64,000 nt of DNA from Sulfurimonadaceae bacterium (lineage in GTDB: Bacteria > Campylobacterota > Campylobacteria > Campylobacterales > Sulfurimonadaceae). Below, in pieces: positions 4,991 through 64,000 of this stretch; the first letter of the stretch is position 1, and every line of letters begins with the position of its first letter. The stretch lies in NCBI GenBank assembly GCA_050305515.1, contig JBNLFL010000016.1, positions 17,496-81,495 on the forward strand, in the 5' to 3' direction. The notes below the pieces were generated by a model, which made no database searches, was not told where the DNA came from, and was given only the letters and a program-made list of their open reading frames with translations. Both the position numbers and the translations under genes were made by a program.

Positions 4991-5072
4991 AACTACATCG
5001 AATTTCCCCTTGAAGCTTCAGAAAATACCCTCTATGATGAGCGTATAAAACCTGTTACACAAGGAGGATAAG

Positions 5073-5255: not shown

Positions 5256-5317
5256 TCTGTTTTAAAAACTATTCTCACTATAATGCGATATCTTTGTGAA
5301 AAAAAAAGGATCGCATA

Positions 5318-8484: not shown

Positions 8485-8490
8485 GATGTC

Positions 8491-9744: not shown

Positions 9745-10729
9745 CACGCTTTCCCCGCAGGAGCTGCAGTTCTTTATCGAACAGAGCTTCAAGCTTGAAA
9801 ACGATTTTAAAAACCTTAAAGAGTCGTATGAACAGCTGCAGGGAACCATAGAGCGTGTCGTCGCCTTTTTGCCCAATGCCATCTGGATTCTTGAAGAGGA
9901 TGGCAGGGTTTTTCTGGAAAATACCCAGGCGAAGGAACACGCCCATTTACTTGAGGCGCTGCGTTTCGATGAGGAAGAGTATGAACTTGCCATCGATGCG
10001 CGCTATTATCTGATCAAGCTCTCCCGTTATGAGGAGAAACGGCTGATTTCGGCAACGGACATCACGGAGCAAAAGCGCAAGGAAAACCTTGCGACCATGG
10101 GGCAGATGGCGGCGCATCTCTCGCATGAGATCCGTAATCCCATCGGCTCGATTGCACTGCTAACCTCAACTTTGATGAAGCGTGTCATTCCCAAAAACAA
10201 GCCGATCGTCTTTGAGATTCAGAAGTCCATTTACCGAATCGAGCGGATCATCAAATCAACCCTGATGTTTTCCAAAGGGGTCAAGACGCAAATCGAGACC
10301 ATCCGCTGGAGCCAGATTCTTGAAGAGCTTGAGATGGCTATAAGCTATTACAGTTACGCCAAGGAGATTGACTTCATTCTCCCGCGGGATGATTTTGAAC
10401 TCTCGGGCGATGCCGATCTGCTGAGCATGCTCTTTAGCAATTTCATTTTCAATGCCATTGATGCGATTGAGACAGATGAAGAGGAAACGGGCCGTGTGGA
10501 GATGCAGCATGTCGCTGAAGCGGACTTTCACCGTTTTGAAGTCCATGATACGGGCATTCCCATCGAAAACAAGCAGATGCTCTTTGAAGCGTTTAAAAGT
10601 ACGAAGCAGAAAGGAAATGGGCTGGGATTGCTCTTAAGCAAGCAGATTGCAGAGGCCCATGGCGGTGAAGTAGGGCTCTGCGAGGGCGCGCACAAAGGCT
10701 TTTACATTCGCCTGCGCCGCCGGGATTAA
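9737..10729 (+). CDS. Cytoplasmic sensor histidine kinase (PAS-like N-terminus, HisKA, HATPase_c)
   Basis: H-box AAHLSHEIRNPIGSI. N-, G1- and G2-like boxes (FNAIDA, HDTGIPI, GNGLGLLLSKQIAEAHGG). No TM segments. Confidence 0.85.
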   Translation: MADTLSPQELQFFIEQSFKLENDFKNLKESYEQLQGTIERVVAFLPNAIWILEEDGRVFLENTQAKEHAHLLEALRFDEEEYELAIDARYYLIKLSRYEEKRLISATDITEQKRKENLATMGQMAAHLSHEIRNPIGSIALLTSTLMKRVIPKNKPIVFEIQKSIYRIERIIKSTLMFSKGVKTQIETIRWSQILEELEMAISYYSYAKEIDFILPRDDFELSGDADLLSMLFSNFIFNAIDAIETDEEETGRVEMQHVAEADFHRFEVHDTGIPIENKQMLFEAFKSTKQKGNGLGLLLSKQIAEAHGGEVGLCEGAHKGFYIRLRRRD

Positions 10730-11292
10730 TCTTCCAGAATCCCTTCGATTTCAATCTGGAGTTTGACTGTGTCGCTTACGGCAACTCCGCCGGCTTCAAT
10801 CAGCTTGTTCCATTTGACACCGTAATCAAGACGGTTGATCTCGCCTTCGAGGCTGAAACCGACGCGCTGGTTCCCCCACGGATCTTCAATCATACCACCC
10901 AATTCGTATTCAAGTTCGATCTCTTTGGTAACACCGTGCATCGTAAAGGTTCCGTAAAGTTTGTCACCCTTGATTTTGGTCATCTTGAAGGTGATGTCGG
11001 GATATTTTGCAACATCGAAAAAATCGGCACTGCGCAGGTGGTTGTCGCGCTTTTCAATGCCGGTATCGATGGAAGCAACTTTAATGTCACCTTCGAGTGC
11101 GGTCAGGGTTTTGCTTTTTTCATCAAACGCAAAGCTGCCGCTGAACTCTTTGAAGTCGCCGCGGACATTGCTGACCATCATGTGTTTGACCTTGAATCCG
11201 ACGTTCGTGTGCGAGTTGTCGAGTTTGTAGGTTCCGCCAAAAAGCAGTACCGACGTAAGCAGTGTCAGTGAAAGTAGACGTGGAAGTTTCAT
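10726..11292 (-). CDS. YceI-family periplasmic (polyisoprenoid-binding-like) protein
   Basis: Signal peptide MKLPRLLSLTLLTSVLLFG. YceI-type pattern (YKLDNSHTNVGFKVKHMMVSNVRGDF...RDNHLRSADFFD). Start moved to the internal ATG at 11292, which has AGGAG upstream; the track start was 11319. Confidence 0.85.
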   Translation of the reverse strand: MKLPRLLSLTLLTSVLLFGGTYKLDNSHTNVGFKVKHMMVSNVRGDFKEFSGSFAFDEKSKTLTALEGDIKVASIDTGIEKRDNHLRSADFFDVAKYPDITFKMTKIKGDKLYGTFTMHGVTKEIELEYELGGMIEDPWGNQRVGFSLEGEINRLDYGVKWNKLIEAGGVAVSDTVKLQIEIEGILED

Positions 11293-11394
11293 AAGAGGCT
11301 CCTGAAATTTGGAATGCAACCATCATATTATGCTTACATGTAAAGCTTCCAAAAGTCATTCACCTGATTGAACAGATAAAGAAAACTTTAATGA

Positions 11395-12090
11395 TTATGA
11401 AAAACGGTTTCTAAAGTGTTTTGCCCCGTCTTTGCTCGATTCGACCGTGTCACTGATTCCCTCGAAACTGAAACGGATTTTGCTCTGTTCGATGGTCTCC
11501 ATCTCCCTGATATGATCGAGGTTAATCAGATAGGAGCGATGAATACGCACAAAATGGTGCGGCAGCAGCATTGTTTCAAGGTCGGATATTTTTTTGGTGA
11601 TATATGAGAAGCCTTTTTTTGTGCGCAGCATCACCTCGCTCAGATCGGCTTTGATATAGTAGATCTCTTCGGGACGCAGCAGGTAGTAGTTTTCGCCGTT
11701 GCGGCTCATAATGCGCAGGTCGCCGCTTGCCGAACGCATCTCGAGCGTCACGCGTTCAAGTGTTTTTTCAAGCTGTTCGATACTGTAGGGCTTGACAAGG
11801 TAGCCGATTGCGCCCATGTCGAAGGCATCAAGCGCATGGTCGCTGTAGGCGGTCTGAAAAATCAATGCGCTCGAACTCCCCCGGTAGCGGAGTTCATAGC
11901 CCAGATCAATACCGTTCATCGCCCCCATTTCAATATCAAGAAAGATCACATCGAAAGGGGTGGCAGCGGCTGCTTCAAGTGCGCCGGGGGCATCTTCGGC
12001 TGCCGTAATGTGTTCATGGCCGAGCGTGCGCAGCATACGTTCAAGACGCTGCCGTGCCAGAACCTCGTCATCGACAATGAGAATATTCAT
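11395..12090 (-). CDS. Two-component response regulator, LytTR DNA-binding family
   Basis: Receiver domain (ILIVDDE...DVIFLDIEM) plus a C-terminal LytTR domain (FVRIHRSYLINLDHI). Confidence 0.9.
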   Translation of the reverse strand: MNILIVDDEVLARQRLERMLRTLGHEHITAAEDAPGALEAAAATPFDVIFLDIEMGAMNGIDLGYELRYRGSSSALIFQTAYSDHALDAFDMGAIGYLVKPYSIEQLEKTLERVTLEMRSASGDLRIMSRNGENYYLLRPEEIYYIKADLSEVMLRTKKGFSYITKKISDLETMLLPHHFVRIHRSYLINLDHIREMETIEQSKIRFSFEGISDTVESSKDGAKHFRNRFS

Positions 12091-13075
12091 GATTGACTCC
12101 TAAGGTAATAAGAAATTCCGGAGGGTCGGAAGCGACGACTTCAAGCGCGCCGCCGCAAAGGCGTTCGAGACGCTCTTTGAGATTTGAAAGCCCGATTCCC
12201 TCTTGAAAATCTTTCAGGGCTTTGCCGTTATTGGCTACCCGAATCGAGCCGTGAGCGACTGAGATACTGATACGAAGCGGTCGGTTTTCCAGACCGTGCT
12301 TGATGGCGTTTTCCACCAGAAGCTGGATGGAGAACTTCGGCACGTTCATCGTTTCCACACCATCTTCAAGGGTTGTATTCAGGGCAATACGGTTGTTATG
12401 GCGGATGTTCTCAAGATCGACGTAGTCGCGAACATTCCTCAGTTCGTCACGGACAGCTATGAGTGCCTTCTCCTGCATCGTGTTGCGCATGAATGCAGAT
12501 ATCTTCAAAACGGCAGCTTCCGCCTTGAGCGGATCGGTGTGAATGAGTTCAGCTACGGAGTTTAGCGCATTGAACAGGAAATGGGGATTGAGCTGGGTTT
12601 CAAGAGAACGCAAACGGCTTTGAAGCAGATGATGGTCGGCCTGCTCTTTTTCATTTCGCATTTTTACGAAGCGGTAGAGCAGCGCGCCTACAATGTAGGT
12701 CAGGATACCGACGGCCGCAGCAATGGTAAGGGCGGAGCCTTTGACACCGGAAATGACAGTGACCGGCAGATGATCAGTCAGAAAAATGGTGCAGAGTGTC
12801 CCCAGAAATCCCGAAAGAAACGAGAAAAAGAGGGCCATAAGATCCCAGTAGCGCTTTTCAAGCCGCGGCAGCAACACGGTGTTCATCAGGCTGATGCATA
12901 CCAGAGAAAAGAGCGTGATGAAAAATCCCAGCAAGGCTCCAAAGAATGCACCCTCAACAATCGGTTGCGCGAGCAGCTGGTATCCGAGTGCCGAGAGCGT
13001 GGTTCCAAAGAGGATGCCGATTACGATGATGTAAAGCCAGTCCTGCTTTCGGATCTCAAGTTCGATATCACGCAT
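12068..13075 (-). CDS. LytS/YehU-type sensor histidine kinase
   Basis: Several N-terminal TM helices, then the His_kinase motif LNPHFLFNALNSV and a GHKL ATPase region. The 3-prime end overlaps the response-regulator gene. Start set at the internal ATG (MRDIELE). Confidence 0.85.
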   Translation of the reverse strand: MRDIELEIRKQDWLYIIVIGILFGTTLSALGYQLLAQPIVEGAFFGALLGFFITLFSLVCISLMNTVLLPRLEKRYWDLMALFFSFLSGFLGTLCTIFLTDHLPVTVISGVKGSALTIAAAVGILTYIVGALLYRFVKMRNEKEQADHHLLQSRLRSLETQLNPHFLFNALNSVAELIHTDPLKAEAAVLKISAFMRNTMQEKALIAVRDELRNVRDYVDLENIRHNNRIALNTTLEDGVETMNVPKFSIQLLVENAIKHGLENRPLRISISVAHGSIRVANNGKALKDFQEGIGLSNLKERLERLCGGALEVVASDPPEFLITLGVNHEYSHCR

Positions 13076-14504
13076 CGAGCAGCCTGGCAAGATTGTGAAC
13101 ACCTGTGACGACACCCGGCCATCCCTGCGCGGCATAAACGGAATCTCCCACGTTGTAGAGTCCGCGAAAGGGGGTGTCGTTACCCGGAAGACGGGGCAGA
13201 AAATTGCGCATGGTCATGGCATTGCCTCCAAGTTGCGAGCGTCCAAGGTAGTGCTCAAACGTTCCGGGCGTCGCGGCGAAATGATCGACGATCTGCGATT
13301 TTTTGATCTCCAGTGTATCACAAATACGCTGTAGAAGGTGTGATGCGAGTAGCTGCTTTTGCTCTTTGTAGGCAGCAGGTTCAAGGCCGCTCCACCATCG
13401 CGCATCCGTATGAATCGATGCGGTCACACTGTAGTGTCCCGGTGCTGCCATGAGTGCATCGGAAGGGTCGGAAAAAGAGACAAAGAGTGCCCGGGAGAGC
13501 GTTTGCGGTACGACTTTTGGAAATATGATTTGATAGTGGTGGGCAAACGCGGCACTGCTTTCAAGTGTCAAATAGAGCATAAAGGCGCTCTGATGGTTAT
13601 CGAGCGTTTCATACCGCTGATAGAAGCGTTTGTATTTCGCATTGTCAAAGAGGCGCGCCGAATTGTAGACGGTAGTATTGAGTATGAGATTTCTGGTTTC
13701 AACAGTGGCATTTTTGCCATGAAGCAGATAGCCCGATTTTCGGACTTCAACGTGAGAAATTTCGGTATTGCGGTGTATGGTTCGCATGTTACATGTAAGG
13801 GCGTCGAAGAGCGTGCCCATACCCCCGATGCTGTAGTGGTTGGCACCGAAGGTATAGCCCAGCGCCAGTGCGGCCGTGAGGAAGTTGACCTCTTCGCTGT
13901 TGCTTTGTGTGACGATAAGCAGCTGGGCGTCGATAAAGTCGCGGTACGCTTTTGAAAGCGTGCCGAAAAAACGGCTGATATAGCGCGACGCCGAGATGCC
14001 GATGTAGGGCGCAAACTTCAGAGCCAGAGGCATGAAGCTTGCAAGCGACGTGCATTTGTCCAGCAGTGAATGTGCGGAGTATCGATATCCGTCCATAGCA
14101 TAAAACTGCACGTTGATGTCGTAGACCAGCCTCCAGAACGCTTGGTTTTTCGCATGGGGATGTACCCGTTCGATCTCATCCAAAAAACGATCAAGATCCC
14201 GGTAACGCGCCACGCTTTTGCCGTTTTGAATGACAACGAGAGCCGGGTCGGTCGGAATGAGTTGCGGCGCGGTGCCTGCGGCGTCAAAAAGCGCTTTGAC
14301 ACTCTTGCCCGCTTCATACCCGGCAAAGGTCGTCGCTCCCGTATTATAGCGGCGCCCTTTGTGTTCAAAAGAGCTGCTGCAGCCTCCAAGAGAGGGCTCT
14401 TTTTCAATCAGCGCGACATCGTGGCCTCTGGCATCGAGCAACGCGGCAATGGCGCTTCCGCCAATACCCGAGCCGACAACGGCGAAATCATGCATAATAG
14501 GCAC
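13068..14504 (-). CDS. FAD-dependent oxidoreductase, phytoene-desaturase (CrtI/CrtD-like) family
   Basis: N-terminal dinucleotide-binding fold (FAVVGSGIGGSAIAALLDARGHDVALIEKEPSLGG) and a C-terminal GDSVYAAQGWPGV motif typical of the amine-oxidase/CrtI family. Confidence 0.8.
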   Translation of the reverse strand: MPIMHDFAVVGSGIGGSAIAALLDARGHDVALIEKEPSLGGCSSSFEHKGRRYNTGATTFAGYEAGKSVKALFDAAGTAPQLIPTDPALVVIQNGKSVARYRDLDRFLDEIERVHPHAKNQAFWRLVYDINVQFYAMDGYRYSAHSLLDKCTSLASFMPLALKFAPYIGISASRYISRFFGTLSKAYRDFIDAQLLIVTQSNSEEVNFLTAALALGYTFGANHYSIGGMGTLFDALTCNMRTIHRNTEISHVEVRKSGYLLHGKNATVETRNLILNTTVYNSARLFDNAKYKRFYQRYETLDNHQSAFMLYLTLESSAAFAHHYQIIFPKVVPQTLSRALFVSFSDPSDALMAAPGHYSVTASIHTDARWWSGLEPAAYKEQKQLLASHLLQRICDTLEIKKSQIVDHFAATPGTFEHYLGRSQLGGNAMTMRNFLPRLPGNDTPFRGLYNVGDSVYAAQGWPGVVTGVHNLARLLDA

Positions 14505-14579
14505 TCCCGTTTTTTTTGTTCCATTCTACGGGAGAATGCGGCAGTTTGGTACTCTGTTTATGTCGTTTGATAGCGGCTT

Positions 14580-15179
14580 TTAATGCGCAGGCGGGTTTGA
14601 AGGTGCCTCAGCGGCGAGAAGCCGTTTGATATCGGCTTCAATAGAGAGCGGCGTTGTCATGGGAGCGTAACGCGCTACGACATTGCCCTGACGGTCAACC
14701 AGAAATTTGGTGAAGTTCCATTTGATGGATTCACTGCCGAGCAGGCCGCTTTGGGCACTTTTGAGATAGCGATAAAGCGGATGGGCATTCGCTCCGTTGA
14801 CATCGATCTTTTCAAACATCGGAAACGTAACGTCGAAGTTTGTGCTGCAAAAACGCACAATCTCCTCTTCGCTGCCGCTCTCCTGCGCTCCGAACTGGTT
14901 GCAGGGGAATCCCAGCACGACGAGGCCCTTTTCCCTGTAGGTCTGATAGAGGGCCTGAAGTTGTTCATACTGGGGTGTAAAACCGCAATGGCTGGCCACA
15001 TTGACGATAAGCAGTACCTTGCCCCGGTAAGGTGCAAGCGTCGTCATGTTGTGATCGATGGTGGTGACTTCAATATCATAAAGTGACATGGCAGGCTCCC
15101 CGGCAAAAATAGAGGTATTGGCAAAGAAAAACAGCAGGATGAAAGCAGCTATTGAACGCTTGAATTTAGTTAACGTCAT
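14580..15179 (-). CDS. Glutathione peroxidase (Cys-type), with signal peptide
   Basis: Motifs NVASHCGFTPQY, GFPCNQFGAQE and WNFTKFLVDRQG are the canonical GPx signatures. The catalytic residue is encoded as Cys, not UGA. Confidence 0.9.
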   Translation of the reverse strand: MTLTKFKRSIAAFILLFFFANTSIFAGEPAMSLYDIEVTTIDHNMTTLAPYRGKVLLIVNVASHCGFTPQYEQLQALYQTYREKGLVVLGFPCNQFGAQESGSEEEIVRFCSTNFDVTFPMFEKIDVNGANAHPLYRYLKSAQSGLLGSESIKWNFTKFLVDRQGNVVARYAPMTTPLSIEADIKRLLAAEAPSNPPAH

Positions 15180-15321
15180 GGTGATTCCAGAAAAGTTTTT
15201 TGATATCCATAGCCTGCAGTGTAGCTAAAATTATACAAAGATTGATCAACTGACACCGGTGATCTTCCAAATGATTGCAATTACAGGCAAACTGTTACAT
15301 GTAAAGCAAAAAGGAGTTCCC

Positions 15322-16770
15322 ATGCGTCCGCTACACATTTTGCTCACCGGAGCCACAGGCTATATCGGGCGCCGGCTCAAATATGCACTCTCAGCCGATC
15401 GTAATGTGAAGCTGCGCCTTCTGGTGCGCCATCCCGAATCGCTCTCAAAACAGCTTTCACCTGACGTTGAAGTGGTGCGCGGAAGCACTTTCGAACCCGA
15501 AGCACTCGAAGCGGCGATGAAAGGCATTGACGTCGCCTACTACCTGATTCATTCGCTCGGGCATGACGACTATGCGCAGCGCGATCGCCAGAGTGCCATC
15601 AACTTTCGTGACGCCGCCATTGCCGCGGGCGTGAAAAAAATCATCTATCTTGGCGGACTCGGGGTTAAAAATGCGCTTACGAGCGAACATCTCTCCAGTC
15701 GCATCGAGACGGGAGAATTGCTCAGCGCGCGCCCCGATGCCATTGACGTGCTCTGGTTTCGTGCGGGCGTTATCATTGGCTCGGGGAGTGCCAGTTTCGA
15801 GATTATTCGCAATCTCATCGAAAAGCTCCCCCTCATGATTACGCCGCGTTGGGTGCGTACGATGGCGCAGCCCATCGGCGTGGATGATGTGCTGGCCTAT
15901 CTGAATGCGGCGCGGGAGCCGGACATCTCGGGAACGGTGATGATTGACATCGGTGCCGAGCCGCTTTGCTACCAGAATATGATGCGCCAGTGTGCGGAGG
16001 TGATGGGCCTGCGGCGGCTGATCGTTCCCGTACCGTTTCTCTCCATAGGTCTCTCGTCGTATTGGCTCAACCTCTTTACGCCGGTTCCCTTTGGCGTGGC
16101 AGCGTCGCTCATCGAAGGACTGCGTTCGGAAGTGGTGGTGCAAAATGACCATGCCCGAAGGCTTTTTCCGGATATCCGTCCCGTACCCTTTAAAGCAGCC
16201 GTAGCCAAAGCGCTTGAAGATGTGGAAAACAACCAGATTATCAGCCGCTGGAGCGATCAGGGCGGCGGCGTTTGGGAGGAAGATCACGGCAATTCCATCG
16301 CCAATGCGGTTTTTATGGATCGCCGCATCGCTTCTTTGGAGGGGATGAATGCCGGCAGCGTGTTTGAGAGTTTTTGTGCTATCGGAGGCGAAAGCGGCTG
16401 GTTTGGCTACGACTGGCTCTGGTCGCTTCGCGGGCTTTTTGATAAGATGCTCGGCGGCGTGGGACTCAACCGAGGGCGACGTCACCCAGAGGAGCTCCGC
16501 ATTGGAGACAGCCTCGATTTCTGGAAGGTCGTCGATATCAGACCCAATGAACGGCTGCTGCTGTTTGCCCAGATGAAAGTGCCGGGTAAAGCGTATCTTG
16601 AGTTCAGAATCAATGACGGCACACTGGTACAGAGTGCCTATTTTCTTCCCAAAGGGGTTTCGGGACGCCTGTATTGGCTGATGCTCGTGCCGATGCATGC
16701 GCTGGTATTTGGCGCTATGATCCGCGGTGTCATGAAACGTGCCCGTTTAAAAGCGGCATCGGCATCATGA
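15322..16770 (+). CDS. NAD(P)-binding NmrA/SDR-like protein with C-terminal DUF2867-like domain
   Basis: Rossmann motif ILLTGATGYIGRRL at the N-terminus. Start set at the ATG at 15322, preceded by AAAGGAG; the track start was 15259. Confidence 0.75.
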   Translation: MRPLHILLTGATGYIGRRLKYALSADRNVKLRLLVRHPESLSKQLSPDVEVVRGSTFEPEALEAAMKGIDVAYYLIHSLGHDDYAQRDRQSAINFRDAAIAAGVKKIIYLGGLGVKNALTSEHLSSRIETGELLSARPDAIDVLWFRAGVIIGSGSASFEIIRNLIEKLPLMITPRWVRTMAQPIGVDDVLAYLNAAREPDISGTVMIDIGAEPLCYQNMMRQCAEVMGLRRLIVPVPFLSIGLSSYWLNLFTPVPFGVAASLIEGLRSEVVVQNDHARRLFPDIRPVPFKAAVAKALEDVENNQIISRWSDQGGGVWEEDHGNSIANAVFMDRRIASLEGMNAGSVFESFCAIGGESGWFGYDWLWSLRGLFDKMLGGVGLNRGRRHPEELRIGDSLDFWKVVDIRPNERLLLFAQMKVPGKAYLEFRINDGTLVQSAYFLPKGVSGRLYWLMLVPMHALVFGAMIRGVMKRARLKAASAS

Positions 16771-17493
16771 AAATTCCGTCATCCATTTTCTGTAGAGCAG
16801 CGGTACATGCTGCCGCTGCAAGCGTTCGTTGCGGCGCGATTCAATAGTCACCTTCTCAAAGAAGAGCCGCCAGAGCTCTGCATAGCGTTTTTCATCGGAA
16901 TCGGTCTGTGGCAGTTCATAGTCATGCACGGCGTGCAGTTGCATGGAATCGTGCGTACGGACAAGCGCTGTTGCGCGTTTGAGATCGTGAATGATGAACG
17001 GCTCCGGACCGAAACGTTTTTTGAAGTGGCGTCCCATCAGCGGCAGGACATTTTGGGGCGGTTCGATACGGGCATAGAGCACTCCCGACACCACACTTTC
17101 GAAACGGGCGAAACCGACCATCTGATGCAGGGTGCCCAGCAGGCGGTGCTCGTACTGTTCAACCGCATAAACGACAGGGTGGGAGAGTGAGTCCAGAAAG
17201 CGGGGCGATTTAAAGCCGAGTCGTATGTACTGCAGCAGTTGCATTTCGGGGGAGAGTGTGTCACACAAAAATGCGTGATAGATACGCTCACAGTTGTTTT
17301 TGCCCAGTTGCCGCTTCATGGCATCAAAAAGCCTGCCGCTTTGCTCCATATCGGTTTCTATTATTTGCGGCTGTTCAAAAAGCCCCGCTTCAGCGTTGCT
17401 TCGCCCGATGCGTTCGGGGAGAACACGGCGTTCATAGCTCTGTACGACACAACTAAGAAAGCCTTCAAAACTGCCGTCGTAAACCCAGAACAC
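16765..17493 (-). CDS. Putative DNA-metabolism protein that partners the radical-SAM gene (DUF4130 / TIGR03915-like)
   Basis: 242 aa, with its start abutting the stop of the upstream radical-SAM gene. This gene pair is a recognised conserved pair. The family call rests on context and sequence feel only. Confidence 0.65.
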   Translation of the reverse strand: MFWVYDGSFEGFLSCVVQSYERRVLPERIGRSNAEAGLFEQPQIIETDMEQSGRLFDAMKRQLGKNNCERIYHAFLCDTLSPEMQLLQYIRLGFKSPRFLDSLSHPVVYAVEQYEHRLLGTLHQMVGFARFESVVSGVLYARIEPPQNVLPLMGRHFKKRFGPEPFIIHDLKRATALVRTHDSMQLHAVHDYELPQTDSDEKRYAELWRLFFEKVTIESRRNERLQRQHVPLLYRKWMTEFS

Positions 17494-18728
17494 TACAGTT
17501 CCCCTCCAAGTGCGCTGATCTGGTCAAAAAGGCTGGGCTGAACGTAGGCCATCGGCTTTGGAAGCGAAAGAAGGCGGGTTTCAAGCTGTTCGAACCTCAA
17601 AATCGTATTATCAAACGTGCGGCCGTCTGCGGTAATGAAATAGCGGGCCCGTTTGAGCGGAATCTTCATGGTTTCAAGCGCTGCAAAGTCGAGCCTGCGG
17701 TAGCGTCTGGCACGTAAAATCTTGCCCACACTGCGTACGCCAAGTCCCGGAACTCGTAGCAGCATCTCTTTATCGGCACGGTTGATCTCCAGCGGAAAAT
17801 GGTGCAGGTTTCGCAGCGCCCATGCCATCTTGGGATCGAACCGTTCATCCAGAAACGGGTGGGTATCGGAGACAATCTCGTCATAGCGGAAGTGGTAAAA
17901 ACGCATCAGCCAGTCTGCCTGATAGAGCCGGTGTTCGCGCAGCAGCGGTGCGGGTGTGGAGAGCGCAGGCAGATTTTTGTGGGAGTTGACCGGAAGGTAG
18001 GCGCTGTAGTAGACCCGCTTGAGCAGGGCCTGATGGTAGAGCGCGCTGCTGAGCTTGAGAATCTGAAGATCGCTCTCAGGTGTCGCACCGATAATGAGCT
18101 GCGTGCTCATGCCAATGGGCTTTTTGCCGCGTTCAAGAGAGAAGTCCCTTGCCTGATGCAGGGGCTGCAATACCTTTTCCTTGCTTTTTTCGGGTGCTAG
18201 CAGCCTCAGACTCTCGGAACTCGGCAGTTCAATGTTGGAGCTGACCCTGTCGGCAAGCAGGCTCGCTTCGCGGATCAGCTCGGGGTCGGAGCCGGGAATG
18301 AGTTTGAGATGCACATAGCCGTTAAAGCCGTAAGTGTGGCGCAGCAGTTTGAGGGTCTTTAGCAGAAGGCGCATGGTGTGATCTTCGCTGCTGATAATGC
18401 CCGAACTGAGAAATAGCCCCTCGATGTAGTTGCGTTTGTAAAAATTGACCGTAAGTTCCGCGACCTCTTCGGGTGTGAATGCGGCGCGCCTGCGGTCATT
18501 GCTGCTGCGGTTGATGCAGTAGGCACAGTCGTAAATGCAGTGATTGGTAAAGAGAATCTTGAGCAGCGAAATGCAGCGTCCGTCCGCCGAAAAGGCATGG
18601 CAGATGCCGCTGGCGTGGGTAGCCCCGAGGCTGCCGTAGCTTTCGGTGCGTGTCGAACCCGATGACGAACAGGAGACATCGTATTTCGCCGCATCGGTCA
18701 AAATGGAAAGTTTGGTTTCAAGAGTCAT
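17493..18728 (-). CDS. Putative DNA modification/repair radical-SAM protein (TIGR03916-like)
   Basis: 411 aa. Radical-SAM cluster motif CIYDCAYC. The N-terminus (LSILTDAAKYDVSCSSSG) is characteristic of this family. Confidence 0.8.
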   Translation of the reverse strand: MTLETKLSILTDAAKYDVSCSSSGSTRTESYGSLGATHASGICHAFSADGRCISLLKILFTNHCIYDCAYCINRSSNDRRRAAFTPEEVAELTVNFYKRNYIEGLFLSSGIISSEDHTMRLLLKTLKLLRHTYGFNGYVHLKLIPGSDPELIREASLLADRVSSNIELPSSESLRLLAPEKSKEKVLQPLHQARDFSLERGKKPIGMSTQLIIGATPESDLQILKLSSALYHQALLKRVYYSAYLPVNSHKNLPALSTPAPLLREHRLYQADWLMRFYHFRYDEIVSDTHPFLDERFDPKMAWALRNLHHFPLEINRADKEMLLRVPGLGVRSVGKILRARRYRRLDFAALETMKIPLKRARYFITADGRTFDNTILRFEQLETRLLSLPKPMAYVQPSLFDQISALGGEL

Positions 18729-18829
18729 AAAAAAAGGGTAGCAAAAGCAGAAAAGAGAGAGTGAAAATATGGCACAACGTCAGAAAAACAGCGTGGAGTG
18801 TTTTAGGGGCAATGCCTTTACATGTAAGG

Positions 18830-18943
18830 TTAAAACCAGATACAGTAAAGTCCGAACAGACCGATAAAAAGCGGTCCGATCAGATGGCCCAGACTTGCAA
18901 CCAGCGCACGTGAGTTGCACGATTCACATGAAGAAGGGGTCAT
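18830..18943 (-). CDS. Small Cys-containing membrane peptide (37 aa), hypothetical
   Basis: ATG at 18943 is preceded by a strong GAAGGAG. Sequence MTPSSCESCNSRALVASLGHLIGPLFIGLFGLYCIWF. Overlaps the 3-prime end of the upstream small ORF by 20 nt. Confidence 0.3.
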   Translation of the reverse strand: MTPSSCESCNSRALVASLGHLIGPLFIGLFGLYCIWF

Positions 18944-19091
18944 GGTCACTCCTTCGATGACGGTAGCTTGTAAAACGTTGTTTGGCTTCGAGCAGTTGAT
19001 ACCCGATCCAGTAGCGGTAACTGTGAATGAAACGCGCCAGAGCAATGATGACCAGAAAGGTCAGCGTAATGAAGAATATATTCATAGGCAT
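18924..19091 (-). CDS. Small membrane protein (55 aa), hypothetical
   Basis: ATG at 19091 has AAGAAGG upstream. One TM helix (MNIFFITLTFLVIIALARFI) followed by a basic tail. Confidence 0.3.
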   Translation of the reverse strand: MPMNIFFITLTFLVIIALARFIHSYRYWIGYQLLEAKQRFTSYRHRRSDHDPFFM

Positions 19092-19210
19092 ACAAACCTT
19101 CTTGGTTGAATTTTGAATGAAGATTATATTCATAAAATTGAATCGACGGTAAATCGTGACGGCGTATTCTGGCCTAAACGTTTACATGTAAAACAGATGT
19201 CGACGAGGCT

Positions 19211-21478
19211 TCATGTGTCGGCGGTAGCTTCGCGAAGCTTTTTTGGAAGCGTGATGACGGCGGCACATCCCTGTCCGCGGTTCTCAAGGGTAAGTGCGCC
19301 GCGAAAATAGTTCTGGATAATGGTCCGGCTCATGTAAAGGCCGATGCCGCTTCCCTTTCCCTGCTCCTTGGTGGTGTAATAGGGTTCGAAAAGGCGCGGC
19401 TGGATATCTTCTTTCAAGCCGATGCCGTTATCGACAATTTCGATACGCAGCGTATTCTGGTTGTCGAAGAGGTAGAACGTAATTTTGCCATTTTGTGTGT
19501 TTTTCTTCTCATTCCGCTCTTTGATGGCGTCGATGGCATTACTCATCAGGTTAAGAAACACCTGTCGTAAATGGTTGGCATTCCCATGGATATGCAAAGT
19601 CTGGTCACTGATTTCCGTCATATCGACTTCAATATCGTTGTTATGGAGCTGGGCTGAAAAAAGGGCTACGGCATCCTGAAGTGCCTGTGCTACAGAGAAG
19701 TCCTGATCGCCGCTTGAGGGTTTGAAAAAGTTCCTGAAATCTTCAATGGTCTGGGAAAGATGGTTGACCTGTTGCATGCCTAACGCGACACTCTCTTGAA
19801 TGTAGGCATCATCAAGCTCACCGCTTTTCTGGGCACTGAGCATATCCTGAAGATAGAGTGCAATGGCGTTAAGCGGCTGGCGCCACTGGTGGGCGATGGC
19901 GCTGATCATCTCCCCCATTGCGGCAAGCTTTGACTGCTGAATCAGCAGCTGCTCCTGTTCATGCCGCTTGGCACTCTCTTCGGCAACACGCTCTTCAAGA
20001 TGATGGGTCAGGGTTTCCGATTCGGTGATGTCGTAATTGATGCCGATCATCCGCGTCGCCTCTCCCTGAATGTCATAAAGAATATCCGCATAGGATTTGA
20101 TGGTCCTCACTTCACCGTTGTCCTGCCGGAGAATATGGAATTTGGAATCAAAACGCCGGTGATTGGTGATGGCAGACATAATTTCGTCGGCCACGCGTGC
20201 GGCATCTTCGGGAAAGACACAGCGCTCCCATGCATCATAAGTGGAATCAAAATCGCTTCGTTTAATACCATAGAGTTTGAAAAGTGTGTCATCCCACTCC
20301 AGATCCTGTGTGACGAGATTCAGGTCCCATACCCCGACCTGACCGCTTTCAGAGGCGACACGCAACCGGTGCTCGCTCAGACTCAGTTTTTCGCCGAGTT
20401 TCCGGCTCTCATCAAGAAGCTGGCGGATCTTGCGGTTTTTCTCTTCAAAAGCTTTGGCTGCGCGGGTGAGTTTGCCAATGTCATCGTCAGCGACATTCTC
20501 CGGTATGGTGACATCCTGCTGCGATGCGGTAAGGGCTTCAAAGGTTTGGGTCATTTCGCGTAGCGGAGTGGTAATGATCTTGATAAGCACCCAGGAGCTT
20601 GCGAACATGGCCAGTAGGAAAAGCAGGACTGTTACAAGAAGAATCCGGCGTAATTTTTCCGCATTATGACTCAGTTCTCCGCGCAAAACATCAAAGGCTT
20701 TGGTCGCTTCAAGACGCAGCTCTTTGGCGTAATAGAGCATTTCGTGGGCTTCACCGCTCATGACGACATCAAGCATCAGGTAGGCGCGAAAGTGCTGAAG
20801 CGATTTGACGACAATCGTATGAAACTGATCCAGAGCGCTCACAAGGCTCGCAGATTCGTGCGAACGGCTCTGTGCAAGGATTTGTGTCTGCTTCAGTGTT
20901 GCGAGCGCCTTTTCGGCGTAGGAGCGGTCAAGTGTCTCAAAATAGCGGATGACCCCTTTTTCCACCTTCATAAGATTGTTGAGTAGCTTGATATAGTGCA
21001 TCTGTTGTCTGGGATCGTTTTCCTTTGCCTGTAGCGCGGAGATTTCGGTTTCGATCGCTTCGGCAGTGGCGTGCAGGGTGTCCCGAAGTTCATTGTGAAT
21101 CGGGCGTTGCAGCTTCATGATGGCAAAGTTGCTCATATAATTGTCAAGATGCGATTTCAGTTTGGTGACTATCATCTGAAGTTCACTTGCCGAGGAAGCA
21201 TCAAGAAGCTGGATGTTCGTACGAACTGTGGAGGCAAGAGATTCCGCAGCATTGATGGAGTCGGCATCACCGGTGAGCGTAAAGTTGAGGACGTGACGTT
21301 TAAGCTCTTCGATATGGGTAGCCATAGCCATATCTTCCTGTAGCGTACGTGAATGCCGGTTAAGCTCTTCAAGCTGTTTTCCGGTGTGTTCCAGCTGGAT
21401 CATGGAAACAAGCATCAGTGTGAGCATCAAGAAGGTGGAAAAGAGCAGGGTCAGATAGATTTTAGTATTGAGCTTCAT
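19211..21478 (-). CDS. Membrane sensor histidine kinase (large periplasmic helical domain, HAMP-like, PAS, HisKA, HATPase_c)
   Basis: Two TM segments flank a ~290-aa extracytoplasmic region. A PAS domain follows, then H-box ISAIAHQWRQPLNAI and G-boxes (DNGIGL, GSGIGLYMS). Start set at MKLNTKIY. Confidence 0.85.
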   Translation of the reverse strand: MKLNTKIYLTLLFSTFLMLTLMLVSMIQLEHTGKQLEELNRHSRTLQEDMAMATHIEELKRHVLNFTLTGDADSINAAESLASTVRTNIQLLDASSASELQMIVTKLKSHLDNYMSNFAIMKLQRPIHNELRDTLHATAEAIETEISALQAKENDPRQQMHYIKLLNNLMKVEKGVIRYFETLDRSYAEKALATLKQTQILAQSRSHESASLVSALDQFHTIVVKSLQHFRAYLMLDVVMSGEAHEMLYYAKELRLEATKAFDVLRGELSHNAEKLRRILLVTVLLFLLAMFASSWVLIKIITTPLREMTQTFEALTASQQDVTIPENVADDDIGKLTRAAKAFEEKNRKIRQLLDESRKLGEKLSLSEHRLRVASESGQVGVWDLNLVTQDLEWDDTLFKLYGIKRSDFDSTYDAWERCVFPEDAARVADEIMSAITNHRRFDSKFHILRQDNGEVRTIKSYADILYDIQGEATRMIGINYDITESETLTHHLEERVAEESAKRHEQEQLLIQQSKLAAMGEMISAIAHQWRQPLNAIALYLQDMLSAQKSGELDDAYIQESVALGMQQVNHLSQTIEDFRNFFKPSSGDQDFSVAQALQDAVALFSAQLHNNDIEVDMTEISDQTLHIHGNANHLRQVFLNLMSNAIDAIKERNEKKNTQNGKITFYLFDNQNTLRIEIVDNGIGLKEDIQPRLFEPYYTTKEQGKGSGIGLYMSRTIIQNYFRGALTLENRGQGCAAVITLPKKLREATADT

Positions 21479-59948: not shown

Positions 59949-60111
59949 AAAGGCTCCAATGTCTTTTAACTATTTATTCAACAAACATTATATAAAAAAC
60001 AGCCAGATAGTGCCAAATAAACAAACACAAAAAATGTTGGTATAAATGATAAAACCATTGCAAAATGCACTATCTTGACTCTTTTGAGCCTTACATGTAA
60101 GGGTCTATTTC

Positions 60112-60912
60112 CTACATCACCCCAACAACCATCTTGACACTCAGTGCCAGGGCCAAAACGCCAAAGATTTTTTTCAGAGTTCCCACGGGCAGTGTGGTGG
60201 CGTATTTAACGCCCAGCGGTGCGGTGAGGGTGCTGCCAATGGCTACCAACAACACGGCAGGCAGGTACACATAGCCTACAACCCAGTGCGTAGGGTCGGT
60301 ATGGCTCCAGCCGTTTATAAGGTAGCCCAGTGTGCCTGAAATTGCAATAGGAAAGCCAATAGCCGCCGAGGTGCCAATGGCGCGGGATATAGGGATGTTC
60401 TGATGCATCAGATAGGGCACGCTCAGTGATCCGCCGCCAATGGAAACCAGTGCGGAGATGGCGCCAATGAAGACGCCGCTTAGGATCTTTCCTGCGGTAG
60501 CGTGGGGCTTTGTATTGTGCGGGTAATCGCGTTTAAAAAACATACTAAGCGCCACCCATCCCATAAACAGGGCAAAAAAGAGTGCCAGATAGATGCCTTT
60601 AAGATACGACGCTACAAAGGTCGCCACAAAGGTGCCTGCCAGAACGCCCATAGCGATTTTTACGGCCAGATCGGTCTGGATGTTGTGTTTGCGGTAATGC
60701 GCCCGCATGCTGGCAAACGAGGTAAAGATAATCGTCGCCATCGAGGTGCCCAGCGAAAGGTGCATAATGCTCTCGTTTGCAAAGCCCTGCATGGCAAAAA
60801 GCATGGCAAATATGGGCACCATAATACCTCCGCCGCCAATGCCCAGCAATCCGGCGGCAAAGCCCACAAAGAGCCCCAAAACAGCGTAAGCAACAATAAA
60901 AAGCGGCTCCAT
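60112..60912 (-). CDS. TauE/SafE-family anion (sulfite/sulfonate-type) exporter membrane protein
   Basis: 266 aa with about 8 TM helices and Gly-rich motifs (GLLGIGGGGIMVP, GGGSLSVP) typical of TauE/SafE. Its start lies 2 nt after the stop of the leuA-like gene. Confidence 0.85.
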   Translation of the reverse strand: MEPLFIVAYAVLGLFVGFAAGLLGIGGGGIMVPIFAMLFAMQGFANESIMHLSLGTSMATIIFTSFASMRAHYRKHNIQTDLAVKIAMGVLAGTFVATFVASYLKGIYLALFFALFMGWVALSMFFKRDYPHNTKPHATAGKILSGVFIGAISALVSIGGGSLSVPYLMHQNIPISRAIGTSAAIGFPIAISGTLGYLINGWSHTDPTHWVVGYVYLPAVLLVAIGSTLTAPLGVKYATTLPVGTLKKIFGVLALALSVKMVVGVM

Positions 60913-60914
60913 TC

Positions 60915-62963
60915 TTACTCCTTGATCGCTTTGAGTCTTAAGCGCACATAATCAATATGCCATCCGTTTTTTGGGCTGTAAAGCGTTGGTTTGCATATTC
61001 TGCGAACCTCCTCTTTAAACACGCCAAACTCTGTGGGGCTTAAATGTGCCGTGACGCCGTTGGCAAAAAGATCAAGCCAGTGGCTAATGTCATCCACCGG
61101 GGTGGGGCGTTTGATCAACTCTATGTATTCTACTCTAAATCCCTGCGACTCCAAAAGTTTTTGGTAGTGCGCAACACTGGGAAAAAACCACGGGTTTTCA
61201 AACGCTCCAAACTCGGGATGTTCCTTAAAGGCCTGAGCCATGGCATCTACAGCGGTTTTGGCATTGCCCTCGCCGCCAAACTCCGCCACAAAGCGGCCCC
61301 CGGGTTTAAGCACGTTATAAATGTTTTTCACCACGCTATCGCTCTCTTTAATCCAGTGCAATACGGCGTTGGAAAAGAGCGCGTCAAAATGGTTTTCAAA
61401 AGGCATGTTTGTGGCATTCATCACGTGTGCATCCAGCCCTTTAGCCCGTGCGCTCGCAACCATCTCTGCGCTGGCATCCACCGCTGTAACCTTAGCGCCC
61501 GATGTCTGAATCTCCAGCGCAAGCCGTCCTTCGCCGCAGCCCAAATCCAAAATCTGCTCGCCTGCTTTGGGCGCAAGCAGATCCACCACGCTCAAGGCCA
61601 ACTCCGAGACAAACGCGGCATGTTTGTTGTAGGCATCGGCATTCCAGCGGTTTTCATTGCGCTGCATCATGCCCTCATAAATACCCAACACCTCCTCACT
61701 GCCAATCTCTTTGCCGCGTGTTTCGCTGATGAGTTTGACTTTAGCGGCCAATTCGGCCTGCATCTCCAAAGGTGTGTCGATGCCGTATATCTCTTTAAGC
61801 ACATACGCCACACCCCCTTTGCCCGATTGCGAGTTGATGCGCACCGTATCTTGGTAGCGGCGTTTAATATCGCGCGGATCAATGGCAAGATAGGGCACAC
61901 TCCATACCGAAGATTCGCTGTTTCGGTAATGCTCAATCCCTTTTTTAATCGCGTCTTGATGCGTTCCCGAAAAGGCGGTATAGATCATTGAGCCCACATA
62001 CGGATGCCGCTCACCAACACTCATGCCGGTAATGGCGGTAATACGCTTTAAAATCTCATCAATCCGTTCTACATGTAAGCGCGGATCAATCCCTTGCGCA
62101 TAGTAGTTAAAGGCCAAAGTTACCAAATCCACATTGCCTGCGCGCTCGCCATTGCCAAGCATGGTGCCTTCAACACGTTCGGCTCCTGCCAATACCGCCA
62201 TTTCGGCACTGGCCACGGCGCAGCCGCGATCGTTATGCGGATGCACGCTTATAATGACGCTTTCACGGTTGCGTATGTGCGTGCTCATCCACTCGATTCT
62301 ATCGGCATAAATATTGGGCGAACAGGCTTCAAGGGTGTTGGGCAAGTTCAAAATCATCGGTGCATCTGGCGTGGGGTTGTAGGCCGCAATAACGGCATTG
62401 GAAACCTCAAGCGCGTATTCCAATTCGGTCTGCGAAAAGCTCTCGGGCGAATACTCAAACACCACCGCTCCCTCAAAACGTGCCGCTTCGCGTTTCATAA
62501 TACGCACCCCTTCAAGTGCCAAGTCAATAATGGCCTCTTTGGAGCGCTTAAAAACCACCTCGCGCTGGTTGGCGGCAGTAGGATTGTACAGATGCATTGT
62601 AATGCGTCTGGCGCCTTTAAGTGCTTCGAAACTGCGCACAATATGCTTTTGTATCGAAGGGGTCAAGATGCCAACGGTAACATCATCGGGAATCAAACCC
62701 TCTTCAATCAAGCGGCGGCAAAAATCAAACTCGGTTTGCGAAGCGCTAGGGTAGGCAATCTCAATCTCTTTCAAACCAAAATCGACAAGCGCTTTGAAAT
62801 AGGCAATTTTTTGCGCAATTCCCATAGGGTTTGCAAGGGCCTGATTGCCATCTCGCAAATCGGTACTCACCCACGTTGGGGCAACAGTGGCACTTTTATT
62901 TGGCCATATTCTTTGGTGCAATGCAACCGTGGGATACGGCTGATATTTGACATGCGTCTGCAT
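60915..62963 (-). CDS. 2-isopropylmalate-synthase-like (long/type-2 LeuA catalytic region) fused to C-terminal class-I SAM-dependent methyltransferase
   Basis: N-terminal ~440 aa carry WVSTDLRDGNQAL, HLYNPT and HPHNDRGCAVA (HMGL-like TIM barrel of LeuA). The C-terminal ~240 aa carry ILDLGCGEGRLA...VDASAEMV...LKPGGRFV (methyltransferase motifs I to III). Start set at ATG 62963, preceded by TAAGGAAA. Confidence 0.8.
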   Translation of the reverse strand: MQTHVKYQPYPTVALHQRIWPNKSATVAPTWVSTDLRDGNQALANPMGIAQKIAYFKALVDFGLKEIEIAYPSASQTEFDFCRRLIEEGLIPDDVTVGILTPSIQKHIVRSFEALKGARRITMHLYNPTAANQREVVFKRSKEAIIDLALEGVRIMKREAARFEGAVVFEYSPESFSQTELEYALEVSNAVIAAYNPTPDAPMILNLPNTLEACSPNIYADRIEWMSTHIRNRESVIISVHPHNDRGCAVASAEMAVLAGAERVEGTMLGNGERAGNVDLVTLAFNYYAQGIDPRLHVERIDEILKRITAITGMSVGERHPYVGSMIYTAFSGTHQDAIKKGIEHYRNSESSVWSVPYLAIDPRDIKRRYQDTVRINSQSGKGGVAYVLKEIYGIDTPLEMQAELAAKVKLISETRGKEIGSEEVLGIYEGMMQRNENRWNADAYNKHAAFVSELALSVVDLLAPKAGEQILDLGCGEGRLALEIQTSGAKVTAVDASAEMVASARAKGLDAHVMNATNMPFENHFDALFSNAVLHWIKESDSVVKNIYNVLKPGGRFVAEFGGEGNAKTAVDAMAQAFKEHPEFGAFENPWFFPSVAHYQKLLESQGFRVEYIELIKRPTPVDDISHWLDLFANGVTAHLSPTEFGVFKEEVRRICKPTLYSPKNGWHIDYVRLRLKAIKE

Positions 62964-63049
62964 GATAATTTCCTTACATGTAACAATAATAAAATTCAAA
63001 TGCCGCTAAGGGGCAAAACTAAAAAAAAGGGTAAAAAAGGGAAGAAAAA

Positions 63050-63130
63050 TTAGAGTAGGGGTAGTAGTAGGAGAGCAGCGCTTACAGTATGGCTTTGTCG
63101 CGGTATGGCTGTGTCATGATGACGTTTCAT
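63050..63130 (-). CDS. Candidate Leu-rich leader peptide (26 aa) upstream of the leuA-like gene
   Basis: AAAGGAGAGACC precedes the ATG. My translation is MKRHHDTAIPRQSHTVSAALLLLPLL. Six of the last seven codons are Leu (CTC CTA CTA CTA CCC CTA CTC), four of them CTA. No clear terminator hairpin was found. Confidence 0.4.
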   Translation of the reverse strand: MKRHHDTAIPRQSHTVSAALLLLPLL

Positions 63131-63242
63131 GGTCTCTCCTTTGGTTTTTAAATAAGAAATTGTAACAGAGAATGGATCTTTATTCAAGGTTGTCAGATCT
63201 GTGTGAACCTGTCCCTGCCATATATGGTTTTTAAATACAGAG

Positions 63243-63272
63243 TTGACAATAGTGTGGCAGGCATGATAGAAT
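63243..63272 (+). promoter_or_regulatory. Sigma70-like promoter for the TetR gene (TTGACA-N18-TAGAAT with TG extension)
   Basis: TTGACA at 63243-63248 and TAGAAT at 63267-63272, with TGA immediately upstream of the -10 hexamer. Confidence 0.45.
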
Positions 63273-63282
63273 TTTGAAAAAA

Positions 63283-63302
63283 TTAACCAACCGGTTGGTT
63301 AA
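63283..63302. promoter_or_regulatory. 20-bp perfect palindrome, candidate TetR auto-operator
   Basis: TTAACCAACCGGTTGGTTAA equals its own reverse complement. It lies between the predicted promoter and the TetR start at 63312. Confidence 0.5.
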
Positions 63303-63311
63303 TAAGGTTAT

Positions 63312-63932
63312 ATGAAAATGAAAGAAGATACAAAAGAAATTATTTTACAGACTGCATTGGAATTGTTTGCAAAAAAGGGTTTTGACGCCTGTAGCATGAA
63401 TGATGTCGCCGCTGCGGCAAAAGTCAATAAGGCAACGATTTACTACTATTTCAGCAGTAAAGAAAAAATTTATCATGCCGTTTTAGCCCATATCCTTGAG
63501 AACTTTTACGCCAGATTGCTCAAAGCTGTTTCAAAAGAAGAGACAGCTCAGAAAAAACTAATGGCATACATTTATGCATTTGGAGAAAACTTTAAAGATA
63601 CGCAGAAAATAGCGCCTTTAATGCTGCGGGAACTCGCCTCAAGTGGGGAAAACCTTTCTGATGATGTTAGAAAAATTTTGTTTAATAACATCACGTTGCT
63701 GAGTGACATTATAGAGTCGGGATATCATAGTGGGGTATTCAGGCGTCAGGAGATTTTCCCTCTCTATCTTATGATCGTTGGAACCATGAATATGTATACG
63801 GCAACAAATAAATTTCGTAAAAAAGTACCTGCGGAGACTACATTGTCCGGCTTTAATCTGGATTCAAAAGCGTTAGCAGACTATATACTGGCAATCGTTC
63901 GACAAGGAATAGACAGTGAAAAAAATAGTTAA
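63312..63932 (+). CDS. TetR/AcrR-family transcriptional regulator
   Basis: N-terminal HTH (ILQTALELFAKKGFDACSMNDVAAAAKVNKATIYYYFSSKEKIY). Confidence 0.85.
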   Translation: MKMKEDTKEIILQTALELFAKKGFDACSMNDVAAAAKVNKATIYYYFSSKEKIYHAVLAHILENFYARLLKAVSKEETAQKKLMAYIYAFGENFKDTQKIAPLMLRELASSGENLSDDVRKILFNNITLLSDIIESGYHSGVFRRQEIFPLYLMIVGTMNMYTATNKFRKKVPAETTLSGFNLDSKALADYILAIVRQGIDSEKNS

Positions 63933-64000
63933 TGGTGCACAGGTTATTACGCAAAGTCTTGAAGATCTTGGCATTACACATGTATTTGGATATTCCGGTG
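63916..64000 (+). CDS. Partial CDS: thiamine-pyrophosphate enzyme N-terminus (acetolactate-synthase-like)
   Basis: GTG start with AAGGA upstream. My translation is (M)KKIVNGAQVITQSLEDLGITHVFGYSG, the classic TPP-enzyme N-terminal pattern. It overlaps the TetR stop and runs off the window. Confidence 0.55.
   Translation, partial: MKKIVNGAQVITQSLEDLGITHVFGYSG

Follow-up and report, generated by a model that had tools for sequence, protein, structure and literature searches.

In a 64,000-nucleotide (nt) stretch of the genome of a Sulfurimonadaceae bacterium close to Sulfuricurvum (contig JBNLFL010000016.1, positions 17,496 to 81,495; hereafter, the window), a short open reading frame (ORF) rich in leucine codons lies upstream of a leuA-like gene. 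This locus is a further member of the known LeuL family of leaders, and we are confident that the ORF acts as a leucine-sensing leader, that is, as a cis sensor of the leucyl-tRNA supply. The complete statement, in which this leucine-sensing leader works without a classical terminator/antiterminator switch, is given a probability of about 0.5. The gene that it would control is an extra isopropylmalate synthase without the leucine-binding feedback domain.

The elements of the leader are the following; all the coordinates of the locus are on the minus strand unless stated.

63159 to 63187, minus strand: promoter-like site TTGAAT-17-TACAAT with a TG extension, found by sequence scan.

63134 to 63142, minus strand: Shine-Dalgarno (SD) sequence of the leader, AAAGGAGAG, 3 nt 5' of its ATG, and 5' arm of the predicted helix between the SD and the Leu codons.

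63115 to 63131, minus strand: small hairpin CAUGA-N7-UCAUG, predicted by folding, in which the start codon of the leader is paired with a His codon.

63050 to 63130, minus strand: leader ORF of the LeuL type, 26 codons plus stop, MKRHHDTAIPRQSHTVSAALLLLPLL, identified by translation and by homologous peptides.

63069 to 63075, minus strand: CUCUCCU, the anti-SD arm, which covers the end of Ala19 and Leu20-21.

63053 to 63073, minus strand: regulatory codon run CTC CTA CTA CTA CCC CTA CTC, the last seven codons.

The original prediction, made from the sequence of the window, had described a 26-codon ORF running from 63130 down to 63050, with a strong ribosome-binding site and an end rich in Leu and CTA codons, and every detail of it was verified on the sequence. 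The stop codon occupies 63052 to 63050, so that the ORF ends 86 nt 5' of the LeuA-type gene and in the same orientation, and the AAAGGAG part of its SD is placed 5 nt from the leader ATG. Leu accounts for six of the seven final codons (peptide tail LLLLPLL), four of them being CTA. This is the rarest Leu codon of the genome, with only 2.6% of the Leu codons in 1034 long ORFs, compared to four of six in the leader. From the promoter-like site, transcription is predicted to start around 15-20 nt 5' of the leader ATG, and extended -10 boxes (TGnTAnAAT) are found at the matching relative position in orthologous loci. The sequence AAAGGAGAGACC lies between the promoter-like site and the leader ATG at 63130.

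Orthologues of the LeuA form that lacks the regulatory domain (truncated LeuA, below) were gathered from the genus, the family and the order. Upstream of all 32 of them, an ORF of 23-33 codons was found with a strong SD and a C-terminal Leu run, with tails such as LLLLLPLL, LLLRLLLSL, LLLLHLL, LVVVLLLKLR, LLLLQLSTLL and LLLLLNL. In a scan with one genome per species, which overlaps in part with the former set, the leader was detected before 52 of 63 short or fused paralogues, and within Campylobacterales its link with truncated LeuA spans six or more families (f1, f8, f10, f19, f22 and f23 in our numbering). The controls behaved differently: none of 22 canonical type-2 leuA genes from the same family was preceded by an ORF with an SD and a final Leu run, and none of 17 full-length outgroup genes had a leader. 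The comparison of regions 5' of orthologous genes, which the original prediction had put forward as a check, thus found the Leu-run leader ORF to be conserved. Because every orthologue but not a single control gene is preceded by this type of ORF, and because CUA is so rare in the genome, the leader is beyond chance.

The 11 paralogues without a leader by the criteria of the scan come mostly from metagenome-assembled genomes (MAGs) of Aliarcobacter/Arcobacter. In a clade of truncated LeuA from Aliarcobacter/Arcobacter (L135, L136, L141, L143, L148, L152-L154, L157 and L158), whose proteins begin with MSFKKYKQ (MNFRKYKQ in L136), no Leu-run leader was present within 560 nt by these criteria, and this clade could represent a natural loss of the leader.

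Among the leaders, the Leu run and features at the RNA level are conserved, while the rest of the peptide is variable, and no conserved motif for nascent-peptide arrest was evident. Short hydrophobic ORFs are common, so the ORF might in principle be incidental, or encode a small hydrophobic protein that has a separate function and no role in regulating the downstream gene. We regard this as most improbable. Throughout the families of the order the leader accompanies strictly one gene family, with controls that lack it, its conservation resides in the Leu run and the RNA and not in the rest of the peptide, its choice of rare codons indicates stalling, and for the LeuL family translation has been demonstrated and a regulatory role proposed.

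The LeuL leaders were predicted before the leu genes of most Epsilonproteobacteria as peptides of 20-35 amino acids (aa) with several C-terminal Leu residues and rare codons (Porcelli et al., 2013, BMC Genomics 14:616; PMC3847290). In that proposal, the absence of stalling leads to termination and stalling to antitermination, without an RNA mechanism being given (PMC3847290). The leader of C. jejuni is translated, as revealed by retapamulin profiling of translation initiation sites (Froschauer et al., 2025; PMC11955535). The ORF described here shares with this family its size, its placement 5' of a leuA gene with an RBS of its own, the rare codons for its C-terminal Leu residues and its orthology with listed peptides. 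In particular, the entry for Sulfuricurvum kujiense Sulku_2675 in Table S12 of the 2013 study, MKSHTMPISQPITDNRIVSFSLLLLPLL (PMC3847290), has the same tail as the peptide of the window and is near-identical to the leaders located 5' of the orthologous gene in Sulfuricurvum MAGs. The novelty implied by the original prediction was overstated, as the family has been known since 2013, including this S. kujiense orthologue.

The 2013 study dealt with peptides only and did not separate the leaders of type-1 leuA from those of the type-2 paralogues, nor did it describe a helix between SD and Leu codons, the G-poor composition, the missing regulatory domain or the fusion to a methyltransferase. What is new here is the covariation support for an anti-SD role of the Leu codons and the evidence of a dispensable hairpin, both presented below, together with the link to a LeuA paralogue without feedback domain and the split into two leader families. 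The second of these families comprises the leaders of type-1 leuA (L064-L091, from other families of Campylobacterales), in which a core ...(K/R)x(I/Y/F)LPKIEIKN followed by LLL is strongly conserved across several families. In Table S12 of the 2013 study, the peptides of C. concisus, Nitratiruptor and Sulfurospirillum also contain this core (PMC3847290). Such conservation at the peptide level may reflect a function of the nascent chain or of its coding RNA in the type-1 leaders.

In free folds of the transcript, pairing between the leader SD and the first Leu codons was seen for all the lineages displayed. The predicted helix has 8 bp and involves the SD and the three bases 3' of it on one side and the first Leu codons on the other. 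The original prediction had pointed out that the SD AGGAGAG (63140 to 63134) is complementary to CTCTCCT (63075 to 63069); the complementarity is exact, and the pairing covaries across lineages. Thus, the AGGAGAG:CUCUCCU pair of the genus of the window is replaced elsewhere by AGGAGAAG:CUUCUCCU, AGGAGCAG:CUGCUCCU, AGGAGUAA:UUACUCCU or GGAGUAGA:UCUGCUCC, and the independent leaders of type-1 leuA have the pair AGGAGAGU:ACUCUCCU. The duplex of SD and Leu run was stronger for cognate than for non-cognate partners (permutation p = 0.007). In a mini-alignment of 40 rows anchored on GGAG and CUCC, three pairs outside the GGAG:CUCC core had both sides changed in 11-12 of the 40 rows each, with a covariation score of 0.186 compared to 0.071 +/- 0.011 for shuffled alignments (0 of 500 reached it) and to at most 0.094 when slid. 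The start codon is also predicted to be paired, with a probability of 0.78 in this leader compared to 0.34 in shuffles, and with a mean of 0.66 compared to 0.43 in shuffles across 57 leaders. A possible pairing between UAGUUUUGCC and the 5' leader, and the position in frame of a conserved UAG, were inspected by eye and added nothing to this picture.

Several points weigh against a general role of this helix. The core by itself is no evidence, because CUC-CUN codons automatically give CUCCU, and in the mini-alignment the CUCC copy was picked for best fit. About a quarter of the rows are unpaired at these positions, including Sulfurospirillum and some Arcobacteraceae; in Sulfurospirillum the pairing is different and interrupted, and in the Halarcobacter-type leaders the helix is weak (about -5 kcal/mol).

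Between the leader and the main gene, the following elements were located.

63021 to 63049, minus strand: pyrimidine/U-run tract TTTTTCTTCCCTTTTTTACCCTTTTTTTT, immediately 3' of the leader stop, 29 nt with one A.

63001 to 63015, minus strand: vestigial hairpin UGCC-CCUUAGC-GGCA (UGCCCCUUAGCGGCA), 4 bp, predicted free energy -3.4 kcal/mol, outer tier only.

62984 to 63000, minus strand: U-rich stretch with a conserved UUUUAUUAUUGU-type motif, just 5' of the SD of the main gene.

62969 to 62975, minus strand: SD of the main gene, AAGGAAA, overlapping the end of a copy of TTACATGTAA (62974 to 62983).

The tract is followed by AG and then by the 4-bp stem, the U-rich stretch, the TTACATGTAA copy, the SD and finally the ATG of the main gene at 62963. 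This agrees with the earlier description of a near-pure pyrimidine run followed by a weak stem, with no G+C-rich terminator hairpin. The tract is contained in a G-free run of 56 nt (63075 to 63020). This 3.3-Mb genome has 77 G-free runs of 45 nt or more, among which the run ties for the 17th-18th longest, and it has the highest pyrimidine content of the 40 longest ones. Around 32 loci in the whole genome attain the pyrimidine density of this run. Relative to the leader stop, the U-runs of the tract are at +1-5, +12-17 and +22-29.

In 29 tabulated leaders, the leader plus around 50 nt has a C content of 0.16-0.38 and a G content of 0.01-0.16 (0.25-0.38 and 0.06-0.16, respectively, without two low-GC loci of Arcobacteraceae), compared to around 0.2 for both bases locus-wide. 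At the locus of the window, the 80 nt from the Leu run have 0.30 C and 0.07 G and are unpaired in the minimum-free-energy fold, and in excess of C over G the region ranks at the 99.9th percentile genome-wide. Of 29 paralogue leaders, 27 have a U-run of 4 or more within around 30 nt 3' of the stop, as do most leaders of type-1 leuA, and a hairpin scan detected no hairpin 5' of these U-runs. A rho gene is present in the genome. Among the features that define attenuators dependent on Rho, the locus has those of composition only, namely C-rich, G-poor and unstructured RNA at and after the leader stop. That termination is dependent on Rho and free of hairpins is, on these sequence features, a possibility that we hold at somewhat less than even odds.

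In the mechanism that we propose, with ample leucine the first ribosome would complete the leader and depart. The helix between SD and Leu codons, together with the AUG hairpin, would then shut the start of the leader and leave the transcript free of ribosomes. The bare C-rich, G-poor RNA could load Rho, and RNA polymerase would leave the template at the U-runs or beyond them, either ahead of the leuA-like gene or in its early part. When Leu-tRNA is scarce, ribosomes would stall and queue on the CUA codons, keep the helix open and shield the tract, so that transcription would enter the gene. As a tentative generalisation, LeuL might be a third design of amino-acid attenuator: its Leu codons would double as an anti-SD that locks the leader start once it has been translated a first time, unless a ribosome is stalled on them, and the decision would be taken on an unstructured, G-free pyrimidine/U-run tract by Rho or by contact between ribosome and polymerase, with no hairpin involved.

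Against this mechanism, the same excess of C over G is found at 330 other loci of the genome, and the CUN Leu codons and the U-rich intergenic DNA partly explain the C-rich, G-poor composition. The queueing of ribosomes and its timing relative to Rho are pure conjecture, and the response to leucine, the 3' ends and the effect of Rho at this locus are predictions from the sequence. Of the leucyl-tRNA-dependent attenuation put forward in the original prediction, the part that stands is a genuine and conserved Leu-codon leader before a leuA-like gene; the leucine response and the step of termination or release are still putative. A further point against a hairpin-free mechanism comes from the relatives. 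A hairpin with two tiers, UGCC[GGGCGN-loop-NCGUCC]GGCA, takes the place of the weak stem in most Sulfurimonadaceae orthologues; two of its pairs are compensatory, U's usually follow, and with -12 to -17 kcal/mol it could be an ordinary terminator.

This hairpin is also the basis of the classical explanation, intrinsic attenuation, in which the UGCC..GGCA hairpin and the U-rich run form the terminator, and stalling frees the SD region to pair with the U-rich 5' flank and arm of the hairpin as antiterminator. In sister genera, the conserved two-tier structure with its compensatory pairs and U-run has predicted energies from -12.7 to -16.8 kcal/mol in three cases and of -9.8 kcal/mol in a fourth, and Sulfurospirillum has a covarying UCUUGN6CAAGA-U5 hairpin. 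The stalled ribosome was modelled by masking the Leu run during transcript folding, and the freed SD then paired in the fold of lowest energy as AAAAC.AAAGGAGAG with CCUUUUUUUU.AGUUUUG, at the 3' end of the tract and beside the stem (-9.9 kcal/mol). However, this genome and two relatives have only the outer four pairs of the hairpin and keep the leader, and the tail UUUGAAUUUUAUUAUU of the stem has no clean U-tract. No U-run follows the hairpin in L097, L112 and L132, and the Sulfurimonas MAG locus L116 has no hairpin at all and still has the leader. These comparisons are evidence that the hairpin is dispensable. The candidate antiterminator is built of A-U and G-U pairs (-8 to -11 kcal/mol), its location varies by lineage, and initiating ribosomes would compete for the leader SD. 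Masking the Leu run left the terminator-like stem as probable as before or more so (0.97 compared to 0.98 in this genome), and no consistent drop was seen over 13 loci.

Scans of the locus gave the same picture. No combination of a hairpin and a U-tract at -3 kcal/mol or below passed the scan in the spacer of this genome, a search of the leader strand with a terminator consensus was negative, and the Rfam model Leu_leader had no match at E <= 10 in positions 60000 to 64000. Thus neither an intrinsic terminator nor a ribosome-dependent antiterminator nor an Rfam match, as expected of a classical attenuator, was found. Terminator-like motifs were not enriched in positions 1-20000 of the window either (20 compared to 22.5 expected from shuffles). 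As the modelling of the stall had no consistent effect, both the classical switch and a sequestration of the main SD by the tract were rejected as leading model, and we consider classical intrinsic attenuation unlikely.

The second of these models belongs to an explanation in which control is post-transcriptional: translation of the leader would set the translation or the stability of the leuA-like mRNA, by pairing between the tract and the main SD or by protection from RNase, and no termination would be involved. The UUCC of the pyrimidine tract is complementary to the GGAA core of the main SD, the U-rich UUUUUAUUGU-type motif by the main SD is conserved across families, and the SD:Leu-codon helix closes a 5'-terminal domain of the transcript. 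In the folds, however, the predicted accessibility of the main SD was the same in the free and the stalled state; over 29 loci it ranged from 0.18 to 0.98 with no consistent direction. Here the main SD is predicted to pair locally rather than with the tract, and the spacer of close relatives tolerates insertions of 130-300 nt. This explanation is rather improbable in our judgement. In another one, the ribosome itself ends transcription: a ribosome that reaches the stop close behind RNA polymerase would dislodge it from the weak rU:dA hybrids of the U-runs, whereas a ribosome stalled upstream at CUA would make no contact and the polymerase would pass. The frequency of U-runs close behind the stop, with no preceding hairpin, speaks in favour of it, and for C. 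jejuni, leader RNAs with ends a short distance 3' of the stop codon have been reported (PMC3847290). On the other hand, the distance between stop and U-run is variable (+3 to +26), and by sequence such termination is indistinguishable from the action of Rho. Trailing ribosomes are known to push the polymerase forward, and we know of no precedent for regulatory termination induced by a ribosome. We consider this contact mechanism very unlikely.

Some observations on the spacer stand apart from the choice between these mechanisms. The pyrimidine tract has at its 3' end the motif TTTTTAGTTTTGCC (63012 to 63025, and the same place in L094-L112, L132 and L101), which is nearly invariant across Sulfurimonadaceae and recognisable in one Arcobacteraceae locus, and which is conserved far better than its surroundings. 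Small structured insertions between leader and gene are found in L009/L094 (around 130 nt) and in L047, L050 and L053 (spacers of 150-300 nt). They carry hairpins with arms of the CTTCTTGCAAAA...TTGCAAGAAG type and resemble miniature mobile repeats, and they leave the leader and the region of the main SD intact. An internal promoter of the spacer with TTTTTATTGT as its -10 box was considered and discarded, as in orthologues this box is 13 nt from the ATG and the transcript would lose the SD. The original prediction had taken TTACATGTAA as forming a unit with the RBS of the main gene, and this did not hold: the palindromic decamer is present in 1182 copies in the genome compared to around 3.5 expected, that is, around one per 2.8 kb with 24 in the window, and is not an RBS element. 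Its copies have no flanking consensus, and an SD and a start codon follow in only around 8% of cases. It is an over-represented genome-wide word, perhaps uptake-signal-like or a site of protein binding.

A genome-wide scan for SD-preceded leaders with amino-acid runs 5' of long ORFs returned no second convincing case, and this is a lineage without a general repertoire of classical attenuation. In its textbook form, attenuation by a leader peptide is defined by RNA hairpins that compete with one another. The enterobacterial leu leader (leuL, RF00512) has, like the locus described here, a short ORF with a Leu run of mostly rare CUA codons between the promoter and the first gene of leucine synthesis, and the expected logic is the same, with stalling leading to read-through. 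Unlike it, the present locus has no G+C-rich terminator hairpin and no predicted antiterminator or pause hairpin; its RNA is G-poor and unstructured, and the stop codon is directly 3' of the Leu run. A LEU element reportedly described by Seliverstov et al. in 2005 places a Leu-codon leader before the type-2 (long-form) leuA of Corynebacterium and Mycobacterium, which is the likeness to the present case; it is said to be followed by terminator/antiterminator structures, and the LeuA there to keep its regulatory domain, unlike here.

Upstream-ORF-dependent Rho attenuators are an established class that includes tnaC-tnaA and speFL-speF of E. coli and cruR of Bordetella (PMC12360218). With them, the present leader has in common a translated upstream ORF followed by C-rich, G-poor, unstructured RNA, no need of a terminator hairpin, and a stalled ribosome that would shield the RNA from Rho. 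It differs in that there a ligand arrests the ribosome at the stop through the nascent peptide, while slow decoding of Leu codons is expected here; also, no helix between SD and regulatory codons has been described for those systems, and the use of Rho is only a candidate for the present one.

The locus and around 80 relatives have the same sensor of rare Leu codons without such a switch of the RNA, and they belong to a phylum in which little is understood of how transcription ends. If a lock of SD and Leu codons and a hairpin-free termination were confirmed, they would add to the known ways in which a ribosome signals the supply of an amino acid to RNA polymerase. The isopropylmalate synthase has no allosteric site for leucine, and feedback has apparently been shifted to the leader. 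For annotation, unannotated LeuL ORFs are to be expected 5' of truncated LeuA paralogues.

The main gene and its neighbour on the same strand are as follows.

60915 to 62963, minus strand: main gene, 682 aa, a fusion of a LeuA-like protein and a methyltransferase, identified by domain searches.

60112 to 60912, minus strand: permease of the TauE/SafE family, whose start overlaps the stop of the main gene.

Residues 1 to around 440 of the main product contain the HMGL-like and IPMS_D2 domains of the long-form (type-2) 2-isopropylmalate synthase, and a class I S-adenosylmethionine (SAM) methyltransferase, Tam/BioC-like, replaces the Leu-binding regulatory domain LeuA_dimer. A canonical type-2 leuA with 51% identity is present on another of the 44 contigs of the genome. 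In Sulfurospirillum and others, truncated LeuA had been considered as the sole isopropylmalate synthase, which is wrong, as a type-1 leuA is also present. The methyltransferase is fused in some genera (for example, L101/L103), encoded by a separate adjacent gene in Sulfurospirillum (L013/L041) and absent in others; as its arrangement varies, the constant pair is that of the leader and truncated LeuA.

On the other side of the leader, a divergent gene of the TetR family occupies 63312 to 63932 of the plus strand, with a promoter TTGACA-18-TAGAAT and a 20-bp palindrome, TTAACCAACCGGTTGGTTAA, in 63243 to 63302. It was set aside as a regulator of the locus, since the upstream neighbour differs among orthologues, even in a relative with 98% identity, and it is probably unrelated to the control by leucine.

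The permease is probably in one operon with the main gene. The yeast enzyme Tmt1 is said to methylate 3-isopropylmalate, the ester being secreted, and by analogy this operon might make and export a methylated isopropylmalate.

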